64,000 nt of DNA from an uncultured Methanosarcinales archaeon (lineage in GTDB: Archaea; Nanobdellota; Nanobdellia; Woesearchaeales; JAHJBD01), in NCBI GenBank assembly GCA_964534665.1, contig CAZHRT010000001.1, forward strand, positions 605 through 64,604, read 5' to 3'. The notes beneath the pieces were generated by a model that worked only from the letters and a program-made list of their open reading frames with translations, did not search any database and was not told where the DNA came from. A program made the position numbers and the translations under genes. Positions within the stretch are counted from its first letter, which is position 1; every line of letters begins with the position of its first letter. Shown piece after piece: positions 828-37,290 of this stretch.

Positions 828-2306
828 ATGACACTAACTATTGAAGACATGGCAACTTTCTGTAAAAAGAAAGGTTTTGTATTCTCAAACAGTGAGATTT
901 ATGGAGGAATTGCTGGTTTTTTTGATTATGGTCCGTTAGGTGTAGAACTAAAAAACAGTATCAAAGCTTCTTGGTGGAAAACCTTTGTTCAAGATAGAGA
1001 CGATGTAGTAGGAATTGATGGAACAACTATCACTCATCCAAAAATTTGGAAAGCTTCAGGACATGCAGATTGTTTTGGAGATATAATGCTTGAATGTACT
1101 AAATGTAAAGAACGTTTCAGAGGGGATCACTTAATTGAAGATTCACTTAAAATTCAAGCAGACGGTATAAGCAAAGAAGACATTGATAAATTAGTTACAG
1201 AAAACAATATCAAATGTACTAAATGTAAATCAGACTTAGGCAAAGCACATGAATTTAATTTAATGTTTACAACTCAAGTTGGTCCAATTGTATCAGATGA
1301 ATCTAAAACTTATCTTAGACCAGAAACTGCACAATTAATTTTTGCAGACTTTAAATCAGTACTAGATACTTCAAGACAAAAATTACCTTTTGGTATAGCA
1401 CAACAAGGAAGGGCTTACAGAAACGAGATTTCTCCAAGAGATTTTCTATTCAGATCAAGAGAATTTGAACAAATGGAAATTGAATTCTTTATTCATCCAA
1501 AAGAAACCAAATGTTCCTTATTAACAAAAAAAGATCAAGATTTTGAATTTCAACTTTTAACTGAAAATAACCAAAAAAAAGAACAAGAACACACAAAAAT
1601 CAAATTAAAAGACATGATAAAAAACAAAGTTGCAGGAGAATGGCACGTTTATTGGATAAAAGAGTTGTATCAATGGTTTGTTGATATTGGCATTAAGAAA
1701 GATAACTTAAGACTAAGAGAACATCTTAAAGATGAACTTGCGCATTATTCAAGTGCTTGCTTTGATATTGAATACAACTTTCCTTTTGGATGGAAAGAAA
1801 TTCATGGAAATGCAAACAGAGGTACATTTGACCTTGAACAACACGAAAAAGTATCAAAAAAATCAATGGCTGTATTTAATGAAGAAACAAAAGATAAAGT
1901 TATTCCTAGGGTTATAGAACCTTCTCAAGGAACAGACAGAGCTTTCCTAGCAATTATGTTTGATGCATATGAAGATGATAAAAAACGTGGAAATGTTGTA
2001 TTAAAATTAAATAGAAAGTTAGCACCTACAAAAGTAGCTGTATTTCCACTAGTTAATAAGCTAGAAAAAGAAGCAAGAGATGTATATGATACACTTAGAA
2101 AAGAATTTACAACCACTTTTGACAGATCAGGTTCAGTAGGAAGGCGTTATGCTAGAGCTGACGAATCAGGCATCCCATACTGTGTTACATTTGATTTTGA
2201 TAGTAAAGATGACAAATCAGTTACAATTCGTGATCGTGATTCAACTAAACAAGTGAGAGTTAAGATTGAAGATTTGAAAGAAAAATTGATTAATTTGGTT
2301 AGTTAA
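828..2306 (+). CDS. glyS: Glycyl-tRNA synthetase, archaeal/eukaryotic alpha2 type
   Basis: FVFSNSEIYGGIAGFFDYGPLG N-terminus, RFRGDHLIED insertion flanked by two CTKCK knuckles, RPETAQ, class II core and anticodon-binding tail. ATG at 828 fits the family N-terminus better than the tracker start at 750. Confidence 0.92.
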   Translation: MTLTIEDMATFCKKKGFVFSNSEIYGGIAGFFDYGPLGVELKNSIKASWWKTFVQDRDDVVGIDGTTITHPKIWKASGHADCFGDIMLECTKCKERFRGDHLIEDSLKIQADGISKEDIDKLVTENNIKCTKCKSDLGKAHEFNLMFTTQVGPIVSDESKTYLRPETAQLIFADFKSVLDTSRQKLPFGIAQQGRAYRNEISPRDFLFRSREFEQMEIEFFIHPKETKCSLLTKKDQDFEFQLLTENNQKKEQEHTKIKLKDMIKNKVAGEWHVYWIKELYQWFVDIGIKKDNLRLREHLKDELAHYSSACFDIEYNFPFGWKEIHGNANRGTFDLEQHEKVSKKSMAVFNEETKDKVIPRVIEPSQGTDRAFLAIMFDAYEDDKKRGNVVLKLNRKLAPTKVAVFPLVNKLEKEARDVYDTLRKEFTTTFDRSGSVGRRYARADESGIPYCVTFDFDSKDDKSVTIRDRDSTKQVRVKIEDLKEKLINLVS

Positions 2307-4233
2307 CCTGTACGTCTGTTCTATCTGCCTTTTGATATTTTTCATGACAATCTAAAAACCATAATACATTATCCCTGTCTGAAAAATGTTGCCTTATATG
2401 ATCTACCACTACTTGCACACGATCTAATGATGTACCTACCCTCTCTGGAAACAAATTCCCAAAAAACCTTGCTTGTCCATCTTCTTGATCTTCACACCTT
2501 TCACCAGTATTTATTTCATAATATGTAGGAGTATACTTTGTACCAACATCATGTGTAACCTCTGATCTGAAATAAGTTAGTTTCATTTCTGTGTCTGCCG
2601 CCCCAATATGTTCAAGAGTATGTCCACTTGCTTCTTCAACTTGCGCTTCATATAAAGCATCACCGTATGGTTTTAGATTTAAATCCACACCAGAACCTTC
2701 AAAAGATTTAATCCATTTCAATAAAGGTACAGATGTATAAACAGCACCCCTTTTACTCGCATCAGTACATAATCCCTGCATGTCATCTTCCTTGATATTA
2801 ATGGCCATAGTTCTAACAATCTCAATACTTCTATCATTACGGGCAAACTCCAGATAAGCATCTATGCTAGTTACACCATGTTCCAAACACATTCCAGGAG
2901 TAGGTAAATTCAAATTTCCAAACCTCCGCCCATATTTCATAGGAACTGCAACACCAATTCCTTGATACTCATCAGTTCTAGCTTTGGTTGCTGCAATATC
3001 TAGAACTTGCATTACAGGATGATACAACTCAGGTCCCAATTCTCTAAAGTTAGCTTGAGGTTTGAAAAAACCTTCAGGACCAGTCAACATTGGATAATAA
3101 CCTTGTGCTAGAAAAGCTTGCGCAACAACTAAACTTAGATTAGTATTTTCTGTATCCATACCAATGGTGGGTGTCATATCATAAAAATCATGAAGATCAG
3201 GATTAAAGAAAACAAAAGCCAATGGAGATTCAGGTCTGATCTTATCCATAATTCTTGGAGCTCTTACATCCAAAGCAGCAATGATTTGGTCAGTCATAGG
3301 AGCATGATCTACCATTTCAGCAGCTAACATATTGATATTAACATGTTTAGGCCCATCAACATCAACCATGACTGCAGTTTCAGGATGATATATATGCGGC
3401 AGATTTTTCTTGGCTTCTACAGCAGCTTCTTGAGCTCTAGCTACTGTATCACCTCTATGCGCAAGCATTCGCGTTGCCATTTGCCTTGGCGTTACAGCTG
3501 GAGTACATTCCATAAGTTCATCTGGTTTCATACCATGCATTTCTTTACCATCCAACATTGCTTGCATAATCAACAACATTTCTGAACGATGGTCTAATTC
3601 AGGCGCTATATAATTAGCTTCATACATTGCTTGTGCAATTCCAGCCAAAGAACCCAATTTTCTCAATTGAGCTATTTCATGTCCTTTCAAATTTCCTTTC
3701 AAAACATCAAAAGGTGCAGTATCCCAGTTAGCATTATGCACCATCATGCTTCCAGTAGAAAAATTGCCCATTGATAAACCATCTTCTCTAAGGAAATACT
3801 CAATACTAGTTCTAGTATCTGCATAACTTATCGCATCATTCCATTCAAAACCATCATAAACATCAATCCCTAAGACTTCTCTTGCTCCCTCAACCCCTTT
3901 CGGAAGCCCAACATGTATCTCAGTCAATCTTGTAACCTTTTCTGCTAAAGGAGCAACAACATTAGCTTGAAATCTCTGATACGCTTCAACATCATCATCA
4001 CGTAAAAAGAAAGCAAATATTTCATGATCCAAACCATCATCCTCAAGAACACCAACATACCCTAAAATTGGCTCGCCAGTATCAGGATTTAATCTAAAAC
4101 CGCTTGAACTAATTATATGGCAACCACTACTCTGTGTTGGCTCAACAGAATATCCATCAAAATTAAGCATAGCCATAAGGGTTTTTGTATCCTTGAGAGT
4201 AGAATCTGCACCAATAAGCTCAGTAAGTGGCAT
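2299..4233 (-). CDS. Hypothetical protein, 644 aa, compositional outlier (Lys-poor; rich in Asp, Gly, His, Met)
   Basis: A 644-codon uninterrupted ORF in AT-rich DNA cannot be chance. No family recognised, and no TM segment or signal peptide. Its stop overlaps the glyS stop region by 8 nt. Confidence 0.75.
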   Translation of the reverse strand: MPLTELIGADSTLKDTKTLMAMLNFDGYSVEPTQSSGCHIISSSGFRLNPDTGEPILGYVGVLEDDGLDHEIFAFFLRDDDVEAYQRFQANVVAPLAEKVTRLTEIHVGLPKGVEGAREVLGIDVYDGFEWNDAISYADTRTSIEYFLREDGLSMGNFSTGSMMVHNANWDTAPFDVLKGNLKGHEIAQLRKLGSLAGIAQAMYEANYIAPELDHRSEMLLIMQAMLDGKEMHGMKPDELMECTPAVTPRQMATRMLAHRGDTVARAQEAAVEAKKNLPHIYHPETAVMVDVDGPKHVNINMLAAEMVDHAPMTDQIIAALDVRAPRIMDKIRPESPLAFVFFNPDLHDFYDMTPTIGMDTENTNLSLVVAQAFLAQGYYPMLTGPEGFFKPQANFRELGPELYHPVMQVLDIAATKARTDEYQGIGVAVPMKYGRRFGNLNLPTPGMCLEHGVTSIDAYLEFARNDRSIEIVRTMAINIKEDDMQGLCTDASKRGAVYTSVPLLKWIKSFEGSGVDLNLKPYGDALYEAQVEEASGHTLEHIGAADTEMKLTYFRSEVTHDVGTKYTPTYYEINTGERCEDQEDGQARFFGNLFPERVGTSLDRVQVVVDHIRQHFSDRDNVLWFLDCHEKYQKADRTDVQVN

Positions 4234-4879: not shown

Positions 4880-5025
4880 GGGACCTTAGCTCAGACCGGG
4901 AGAGCACACGTATGAAAATACGGTTCAGTACGCTGAAGTGAATTTTAGCAACTCGGTCACGTAGGGGAAGGATGTAACGAAAGGTGCATCCTCCTAAATC
5001 GCGGATTCAAATTCCGCAGGTCCCA
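4880..5025 (+). tRNA. tRNA gene with about 72 nt of extra internal sequence (intron or introns); isotype unresolved
   Basis: Acceptor GGGACCT/AGGTCCC, D arm GCTC-AGACCGGGA-GAGC, T arm GCGGA-TTCAAAT-TCCGC. 90 nt lie between the D stem and the variable region, where 18 are expected. A GAA anticodon is possible if CACGT(4907)/ACGTA(4959) is the anticodon stem, but I could not fold a clean BHB motif. Confidence 0.75.
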
Positions 5026-5712
5026 TTTTTTTATTTTTATCAAGTGCCTTTTATTTCTAAAATAAATATATTTAAACCATAATCTAAGATTTTCTCGTCC
5101 ATTTAATCTTAAACGATATACAATTGAAGGTGATTTGAACCTCACATCGTGCCTAGTTTCTTTATAATAATTTTTTGTTAAAAATCCTTCTTGTTTCAAG
5201 AAATTAAACACTTCACTAACTAATACCTCACTCTTTGAAGTAAAACTAATTATTGGATAATCTTTCCTATAATGAATTGAACAATCAGTATCAGCTAAGC
5301 CTTTTATGAATGAGAACATATAATTTCTACTAGAATTAATCCAATTAGGAATACCAATTTGCTCTTTTCTTCCTTTCTTAAATCCTACATATACTAAATA
5401 ATTAACAAGCCCCTTTGATATTAATCTTAGGCATAGAGAGTTCTGATCTTTCTTTTTATGTGTTGTAGCAACCAAATTAAACAATTTTTTAACTAAACTT
5501 GTAACATAACTTTCTAAATAATTTTTATCTAATCTTGAGTCCCCATAAATTTCGATTAAATATTTATATTGATCAGAATAAAAATTTAAATAGCCATCTC
5601 CAGTAAGTATCCCTAAAAACTCTGCTAATTCCTTAGAAGATTGTGTTGGTAAAATTAACCCTCTTTTAATATCATTTTTGCTTAATTTGATATTTAATAA
5701 ATCAAATTTCAT
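4957..5712 (-). CDS. LAGLIDADG homing endonuclease, two-motif single-chain type
   Basis: Two LAGLIDADG-type motifs are present, LAEFLGILTGDGYL and FIKGLADTDCSI. ATG at 5712 (the tracker starts at a TTG at 5715). The last ~23 codons are read antisense through the tRNA 3' half (4957-5025). Confidence 0.85.
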   Translation of the reverse strand: MKFDLLNIKLSKNDIKRGLILPTQSSKELAEFLGILTGDGYLNFYSDQYKYLIEIYGDSRLDKNYLESYVTSLVKKLFNLVATTHKKKDQNSLCLRLISKGLVNYLVYVGFKKGRKEQIGIPNWINSSRNYMFSFIKGLADTDCSIHYRKDYPIISFTSKSEVLVSEVFNFLKQEGFLTKNYYKETRHDVRFKSPSIVYRLRLNGRENLRLWFKYIYFRNKRHLIKIKKWDLRNLNPRFRRMHLSLHPSPT

Positions 5713-5781
5713 CAATTAAGTTAACAGGTCCCCATTTAAATACCCTACGCCTACCTGTCCTGTGTCCTATGGTATAACAAG

Positions 5782-33748: not shown

Positions 33749-33821
33749 GCCTCCGTAGCATAGTAGCTATTGCGTGGGATTTGTAATCCCAAGGTCGCGA
33801 GTGCAACTCTCGCCGGAGGCT
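33749..33821 (+). tRNA. tRNA-Thr (anticodon UGU), intron-less, with atypical D and T loops
   Basis: Folded by hand: acceptor GCCTCCG/CGGAGGC, anticodon arm TGGGA-TTTGTAA-TCCCA, variable AGGTC, T arm GCGAG-TGCAACT-CTCGC. 73 nt, with no encoded CCA. Confidence 0.8.
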
Positions 33822-33913
33822 CTCTTTTTTCTTTCGAGTTTAACGAGAAAGCTTTTGAGGGTTGATACAGGGCAAACTGCCCTTATTGCTGGCTCCGCCG
33901 GAGGCTCTCTTTT
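33822..33913 (+). other. tRNA-trailing two-hairpin element ending in an exact 18-nt repeat of the tRNA 3' end
   Basis: CGCCGGAGGCTCTCTTTT occurs at 33811-33828 and again at 33896-33913. Hairpin 1 is CTTTC/GAAAG with loop GAGTTTAACGA (33831-33851). Hairpin 2 is AGGGCA/TGCCCT (33869-33883). Confidence 0.7.
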
Positions 33914-37074: not shown

Positions 37075-37203
37075 GCGCCTGTAGCTCAGCTTGGATAGAG
37101 CGATAGTAGAGCTATTTTCTACCGCGAATGCCTCCTAGTTGAGTGGTTTTGCTCCACACAAGAAGTAAGCAATAGGTCCGGAGTTCGAATCTTCGCAGGC
37201 GCG
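37075..37203 (+). tRNA. tRNA gene with about 54 nt of extra internal sequence; isotype unresolved
   Basis: Acceptor GCGCCTG/CAGGCGC, D arm GCTC-AGCTTGGATA-GAGC, variable AGGTC, T arm CGGAG-TTCGAAT-CTTCG. 72 nt lie where 18 are expected. Candidate anticodon loops are TTTCTAA (UCU) and CTCCACA (CCA), and I could not decide by eye. Confidence 0.75.
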
Positions 37204-37290
37204 TTCTTGTCCTACTGAGTTAAGCGAAGTAGGACTTAATTCTCTACGAGTGTGCGTGAACGCATAAGTTCCAGCATCTTCGCAAGCGCG
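37204..37290 (+). other. tRNA-trailing two-hairpin element ending in a 15-nt (14/15) repeat of the tRNA 3' end
   Basis: ATCTTCGCAGGCGCG (37189-37203) compares with ATCTTCGCAAGCGCG (37276-37290). Hairpin 1 is GTCCTACT/AGTAGGAC with loop GAGTTAAGCGA (37209-37235). Hairpin 2 is TGCG-TGAA-CGCA (37253-37264). Confidence 0.7.

Follow-up and report, generated by a model that had tools for sequence, protein, structure and literature searches.

A tRNA-Phe(GAA) gene of a marine DPANN archaeon, very probably interrupted by three bulge-helix-bulge introns within 146 nucleotides

The window analysed here, a stretch of DNA of 64,000 nt, contains a tRNA gene whose acceptor, D and T arms look ordinary and whose middle does not. 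What does the extra sequence in this middle part represent, and can the gene still yield a tRNA? A preliminary description had counted 90 nt between the D stem (which ends at 4905) and AAATC (4996) and had pointed to CACGT at both 4907 and 4958; we read both directly in the DNA. We conclude that the locus is very probably a functional, single-copy tRNA-Phe(GAA) gene of a Woesearchaeota-like marine DPANN archaeon, with bulge-helix-bulge (BHB) introns at positions 27/28, 37/38 and 46/47.

The window belongs to a 1.46-Mb assembly (31% GC, 95.8% complete, 52 contigs; G000 below) from an order of >130 families with genomes of 0.6-2.7 Mb. The clusters nearest to this genome's endonuclease EndA, which are those of Woesearchaeota and Nanobdellota, identify the host as a DPANN archaeon. 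The DNA runs that contain this stretch are marine or seawater metagenomes, and the window also contains an archaeal SRP RNA recognised by Rfam. Contigs from four separate marine metagenome runs carried the same gene with identical sequence; no intron-less or endonuclease-less allele, and no joints, were found among the contigs of these four runs.

In a focused scan of 351 nt, the Rfam tRNA model aligned over its full length to 4880-5025 of the forward strand and scored 36.2 bits against a gathering score of 29, which bears out the earlier call of a 146-nt tRNA gene with canonical acceptor, D and T arms. The alignment fitted all three arms and placed 88 nt where the model has 15 anticodon-arm positions. 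Whole-window Rfam scans in gathering and E-value modes lost the locus to filters, and ARAGORN made no call there, either by default or with -i0,200.

To resolve the anatomy, we listed 130 excisions compatible with a BHB, from which 4617 combinations without overlap yielded products of 70-92 nt. When these were scored against seven intronless orthologues, a triple of introns ranked first, and a separate dynamic-programming spliced aligner, which allowed introns only at BHB-like sites and used an orthologue profile, returned the same three (Table 1). This ranking against orthologues was needed because ARAGORN, run over all excision combinations, accepted 557 products and was thus uninformative alone. 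Nor were BHB-like motifs themselves in excess (14 observed vs 10.7 +/- 4.9 in shuffles); because such motifs are common by chance, the case rests on their combination and on the comparative data given below.

Table 1. Features of the tRNA-Phe(GAA) locus and its endonuclease neighbour (positions in the window).
Feature	Position	Strand	Description
TATA-box-like element TTTATAAA	4844..4851	+	~32 nt upstream of mature 5' end; read directly
tRNA-Phe(GAA) gene	4880..5025	+	146 nt; Rfam, ARAGORN on spliced product, BHB-constrained alignment
Exon 1	4880..4907	+	acceptor 5' strand, D arm, positions 26 and 27
Intron 1 (I1)	4908..4928	+	21 nt; position 27/28; relaxed BHB (HBh')
Exon 2	4929..4938	+	positions 28-37; TACG + CTGAAG
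Intron 2 (I2)	4939..4958	+	20 nt; canonical position 37/38
Exon 3	4959..4967	+	positions 38-46; A CGTAG GGG
Intron 3 (I3)	4968..4998	+	31 nt; position 46/47, variable loop
Exon 4	4999..5025	+	positions 47-73: TC, T arm GCGGA-TTCAAAT-TCCGC, acceptor 3' strand, discriminator A
T7-A-T5 run	5026..5038	+	directly after discriminator base; read directly
LAGLIDADG endonuclease ORF	4957..5715	-	252 aa; Pfam LAGLIDADG_3, E 1.6e-7
CAGGTCCCCATTT	5725..5737	+	imperfect second copy of tRNA 3' end + trailer

Excising the three introns leaves exons of 28, 10, 9 and 27 nt, which join into a 74-nt perfect cloverleaf that ARAGORN calls tRNA-Phe(gaa) and MFE folding reproduces; CCA is not encoded. With U33, G37, G20 and A73 as the yardstick for tRNA-Phe identity, the spliced product has all four, and its GAA anticodon lies in a 7-nt loop. 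In exon 2, these landmarks fall at 4934 (U33), 4935-4937 (GAA) and 4938 (G37). Exon 1 is 96% identical to the intronless orthologues L004 and L005, and exon 2 has the same sequence as the anticodon stem-loop of the orthologues. Alignment to plain 74-nt relatives gives the true anticodon stem-loop as (C)TACG-CTGAAG(A)-CGTAG, which is split in the window.

Several points made earlier therefore stand, some of them in altered form. The Phe isotype holds for the spliced product, the extra sequence estimated at ~72 nt equals the 72 nt of the three introns, and the hairpin GGAAGGATG...CATCCTCC noted in the variable-loop position (4966-4994) exists and is intron 3. The suggestion of two introns, one of them non-canonical, was right about multiplicity and about a non-canonical site and fell one intron short. 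The recommended ARAGORN run with intron search left the locus uncalled, whereas the excised 74-mer was called tRNA-Phe(gaa). Finally, it had been said that no strict BHB could be folded by hand. BHBs do fold for all three introns; I3 is near-strict, I2 combines an outer helix with a weak inner one, and I1 is relaxed.

Each of the three introns has 3-nt bulges, a 4-bp central helix and at least one flanking helix. In I1, the D stem's 3' strand, GAGC (4902-4905), pairs with GTTC (4923-4926) to form the central helix (4/4 pairs, one of them G-U), which is flanked by AC|A and AG|T as bulges; CGTAT/ATACG makes an inner hairpin of 5 bp with a GAAA loop, and the outer helix is absent (h 0). The central helix of I2, CTGA/TCGG, likewise has 4/4 pairs with one G-U, and its bulges are AG|T and TC|A. 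Here, the outer helix is the anticodon stem, with 4 pairs (5 after I1 removal), and the inner helix is a single, weak pair. I3 has the central helix TAGG/CCTA (4/4 pairs), in which TAGG is positions 41-44 of the 3' strand of the anticodon stem, with bulges GG|A and AA|T, an 8-bp inner hairpin capped by C-GAAA-G (a GAAA tetraloop) and a 2-bp outer helix.

We compared the tRNA-Phe loci of 28 genomes of the order, the relatives having been found by DNA search. Three unpublished genomes (G244, G207 and G132) appear in the match list, and no claim is based on them. The first homologues to emerge were mostly plain 74-nt tRNA-Phe(GAA) genes. After BHB-guided splicing, all 28 orthologues gave tRNA-Phe(gaa) except L010, in which the aligner misplaced a long canonical intron. 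The gene is intronless in nine of the 28 genomes, and many others have the 37/38 intron only; an intron at this position with the anatomy of I2 occurs in 15 orthologues. The 46/47 intron is found in seven families (G000, G002, G018, G043, G065, G081 and G123) and the 27/28 intron in three genomes (G000, G016 and G002), while further introns in the tRNA-Phe genes of relatives lie at 4/5, 18/19, 20/21, 25/26, 44/45 and 59/60.

When the 46/47 introns of the seven families were aligned and scored against the BHB structure, their central and inner helices were 100% paired, and five pairs, namely one central pair and each of the four inner ones, showed compensatory changes in which both sides of the pair differ. 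None of 500 shuffles reached either the covariation score or the paired percentage, and slid controls paired at 17-54%. The three 27/28 introns show two compensatory h' pairs (CGTA/TACG vs TGCA/TGCA). Intron positions conserved across families with compensatory changes indicate selection for splicing. They also argue, together with spliced stems that are all perfect, conserved tRNA-Phe nucleotides that are intact, BHB geometry kept at all six splice sites, an intact TATA-like box and T-run, and the finding of this one Phe-like locus alone in the assembly, against a dead tRNA gene whose inserts are debris or inactivating insertions and whose decoding of Phe has passed to another, unassembled gene. 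We consider such a dead gene highly improbable, even though the assembly is 95.8% rather than 100% complete, a selfish endonuclease gene abuts the locus, and the same-genus genome G001 gave no match.

For a functional tRNA-Phe(GAA) gene, the course of expression can be sketched. Judged by the known layout of archaeal promoters, the TATA-like element is a putative promoter, and the T7-A-T5 run is a candidate oligo-T terminator; a precursor of 146 nt or more would be transcribed from the one to the other. An alpha-type EndA, presumably a homotetramer, would cut between the second and third base of each 3-nt bulge, RtcB would ligate the four exons, and CCA would be added post-transcriptionally. 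Transcription of the locus, cleavage by this EndA and the order of intron removal are predictions; they build on what the sequences show, namely how the gene is laid out, the BHB motifs and their conservation among relatives, and genes for both enzymes.

The genome's one EndA gene (C4:24830-25399; L020:1219-1788) encodes 189 aa with the size and domain order of the alpha type (PF02778 + PF01974), conserved Tyr, His and Lys and a Lys-rich N-terminal extension. Its best structural relatives are the alpha subunit of N. equitans and the alpha4 enzyme of M. jannaschii. Over residues 43-189, its alignment with the M. jannaschii enzyme, a strict one, is gapless and shows no insertion, and the 6-residue insert that precedes the catalytic His in N. 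equitans is absent, yet the genome abounds in non-canonical introns. The 'L3' loop of PMC5829648, whose text gives no coordinates for it, was not located in this EndA by pairwise alignment. RtcB is encoded at C21:6685-7953 (538 bits).

This enzyme set is one point against our interpretation. According to PMC5829648, cleavage of non-canonical introns is confined to endonucleases of the (alpha-beta)2 and epsilon2 types, whereas the present genome has a single alpha-type EndA. One could suppose that the gene is functional and I1 is not a direct substrate of EndA, so that cleavage would call for a further factor, or for refolding or processing beforehand. I1 is indeed relaxed and without an outer helix, the same paper ties relaxed-BHB cleavage to insert loops, and the only EndA gene has neither an insertion relative to M. 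jannaschii nor the N. equitans insert. However, the account of DPANN in PMC5829648 associates alpha4-type EndAs with many disrupted tRNA genes, the relatives whose multi-intron Phe genes carry 27/28, 25/26, 18/19 and 4/5 introns also have one EndA each, and the I1 motif is already formed in the precursor MFE. We judge the need for such a factor to be very unlikely.

Splicing is probably ordered, since the folds are mutually exclusive: the I3 BHB takes up positions 41-44 and that of I1 takes up the D stem's 3' strand, so the motifs and the cloverleaf cannot all coexist. The precursor has an MFE of -57.5 kcal/mol with the I1 BHB in place. A conformer with the I3 BHB lies 1.3 kcal/mol above the MFE, forcing the I2 BHB costs 8.5 kcal/mol, and the I2 BHB is present in the MFE after I1 removal. 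The central and outer helices of I3 occupy positions 39-44 and exclude the anticodon stem that I2 needs. In this folding model, I1 and I3 would probably be removed before I2, although thermodynamic folding of splicing intermediates is suggestive only and a 7-bp helix between the D loop and intron 2 competes. This helix, part of the precursor MFE, joins GACCGGG (4894-4900) in the D loop to CTCGGTC (4952-4958) at the 3' end of I2 and competes with the canonical BHB; it may be due to chance or may help to set the sequence in which the sites are cut.

The architecture first proposed for the gene, in which CACGT/ACGTA forms the anticodon stem around a loop ATGAAA..C with one 40-nt loop intron and the hairpin is a second insert in the variable loop, is scarcely tenable: it accounts for the repeat of CACGT at 4907 and 4958, for a GAA in a 7-nt-like context at 4914-4916, for a product that also reads as Phe and for a hairpin that is indeed an intron, but it mixes exon with intron (the GAA at 4914-4916 lies in the hairpin loop of I1), its 40-nt excision lacks a BHB (1/4 central-helix pairs), its 27:43 pair would be C-A, its loop would be AUGAAAC against CUGAAGA in every orthologue, and when scored against the intronless orthologues its product reaches 31.1-34.6, whereas the product of removing three introns reaches 40.0. 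The 20-nt canonical intron, which does have a BHB, splits the true anticodon loop, CTGAAG|A, before position 38.

A tRNA gene with three BHB introns is not a new architecture, as Thermoproteales, Thaumarchaeota and red algae provide earlier examples, and this gene is at the published maximum of three. Archaeal tRNA genes can have as many as three BHB introns, at positions described as 'seemingly random' (PMC8450103, PMC4090602). According to the passages of these two papers on multi-intron genes, which cite Sugahara 2008 and Fujishima 2010 as their sources, genes of Thermoproteales and Thaumarchaeota (e.g. Pyrobaculum calidifontis) combine canonical and non-canonical introns, three at most, as does the gene described here. 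The corresponding passage of PMC8450103 adds two further likenesses, namely relaxed motifs and introns so close that one must go before the motif of the next can form. By contrast, Thermoproteales have an (alpha-beta)2 EndA with a Crenarchaea-specific loop, whereas our gene belongs to a low-GC marine DPANN archaeon with a single alpha-type subunit. Thermoproteales also have intron 'transposition' families, whereas no repeated family of intron sequences was found in this genome, where further copies of the three introns did not occur beyond chance.

Two other systems are instructive. The nuclear tRNA-Ile(UAU) gene of Cyanidioschyzon merolae likewise has three BHB introns including one at 37/38, and RT-PCR showed that its ectopic introns leave before the canonical one (PMC3728597), which parallels the order that folding suggests for our gene. 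It differs in being eukaryotic, in having introns in the D stem and T loop and in that its splicing has been verified, whereas the present gene is known from DNA. The split and permuted genes of Nanoarchaeum equitans, Caldivirga and ARMAN-2 are, as here, BHB-dependent disrupted tRNA genes in small archaea, but their exons lie at separate loci or in permuted order, while the four exons described here are collinear within 146 nt.

The closest precedent is the work of Kaneta et al. 2018 (PMC5829648), whose passages on DPANN assign an alpha4-type EndA to Woesearchaeota and Pacearchaeota, report that disrupted tRNA genes are more numerous in these lineages and that the tRNA sets predicted for them are incomplete, and urge manual curation. 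The present locus is an instance of the disrupted DPANN genes that these passages describe. They differ from our analysis in presenting tRNAscan-SE counts rather than this gene and in ascribing broad specificity to the 'L3' insert. No other papers on tRNA introns in these lineages were found in the literature that we searched. How an alpha-type EndA copes with non-canonical introns is a question that the same passages raise for DPANN, and the gene offers a natural substrate set for a single alpha-type EndA, with a near-strict, a canonical and a relaxed BHB in one 146-nt RNA. It also shows why DPANN tRNA sets look incomplete: an essential single-copy tRNA was invisible to ARAGORN and to filtered Infernal/Rfam searches because half of its length is intron.

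Two relatives appear to go further than the window's gene. The tRNA-Phe genes of G002 (L003:~1420-1600) and G018 (L007:~1285-1460) apparently have four BHB introns each, at 4/5, 18/19, 27/28 and 46/47 and at 18/19, 25/26, 37/38 and 46/47, respectively. In silico splicing of either gene yields a 74-nt tRNA-Phe(GAA) with a perfect structure. The tRNAscan-SE 2.0 paper gives the archaeal maximum as 'up to three' introns.

The gene's neighbour bears on how such introns might spread. The LAGLIDADG ORF converges on the tRNA gene, and its last ~22 codons and stop lie opposite exon 4, intron 3 and exon 3, which they read in antisense. Just past the start of the ORF lies CAGGTCCCCATTT, for which the matching tRNA 3' end and trailer is CAGGTCCCATTT at 5017-5028, and the ORF is bracketed by copies of CAGGTCCC(C)ATTT. 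LAGLIDADG homologues, one of them truncated, adjoin tRNA-Phe in G065 (L056:2201-2464) and G123 (L055:1745-2197), and both of these tRNA-Phe genes have the 46/47 intron. A target-site duplication was looked for around the G065 endonuclease remnant, and none was found. Overall, a LAGLIDADG gene adjoins 3/7 loci with a 46/47 intron vs 0/15 adequately flanked loci without one; the relatives are not independent, and the association is only a lead.

A broader proposal would be that tRNA-Phe is a hotspot of BHB-intron gain in this order, with 0-4 introns handled by one alpha-type EndA in which no specificity loop can be recognised, and that free-standing LAGLIDADG enzymes possibly drive the spread. 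We offer this tentatively and think it rather doubtful as a whole. The spread could resemble collaborative homing, in which a BHB intron would interrupt the target site of the LAGLIDADG enzyme. If true, it would be relevant to the mechanism, still an open question, by which tRNA introns move in archaea.

Other observations concern the introns and the surroundings of the gene. The 46/47 intron of G043 has a 12-nt apex, TAACGAAAGGTG, in common with the window's I3, while 5/6 of the stem pairs below it differ. The tRNA-Phe gene of G043 (L027:~190-360) also has a 47-nt canonical intron with C/D-box-like motifs, CTGATGA ... ATGATTATCAGAG. C/D-box guide RNAs within the window's own introns were considered and rejected, as 20-31 nt is too short. 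Visual comparison of the introns with two hairpin cassettes that follow tRNA genes (33811-33913 and 37186-37290) showed only the 6-mer TAACGA in common, which is unconvincing. Pfam gave no match for a 644-aa ORF on the reverse strand (2299-4233), which lies 650 bp upstream of the tRNA gene and has a GC content of 37-40% vs about 30% around it.

Across the whole of G000, ARAGORN with intron search reported only 22 tRNA genes, several of them miscalled, and an Rfam-based search gave 14 tRNAs above the cut-off. Non-canonical or multiple introns probably conceal much of this genome's tRNA set. One miscalled gene is the other 'Phe' of ARAGORN (C34:2623-2742, L041), a candidate that we rejected on the strength of its orthologues, which are tRNA-Val(GAC); it has a 46-nt non-canonical intron. 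Position 33 is almost universally U in tRNAs, and this tRNA-Val(GAC) and its orthologues L043, L044 and L046 have the loop UCGACAU, which puts C at that position.
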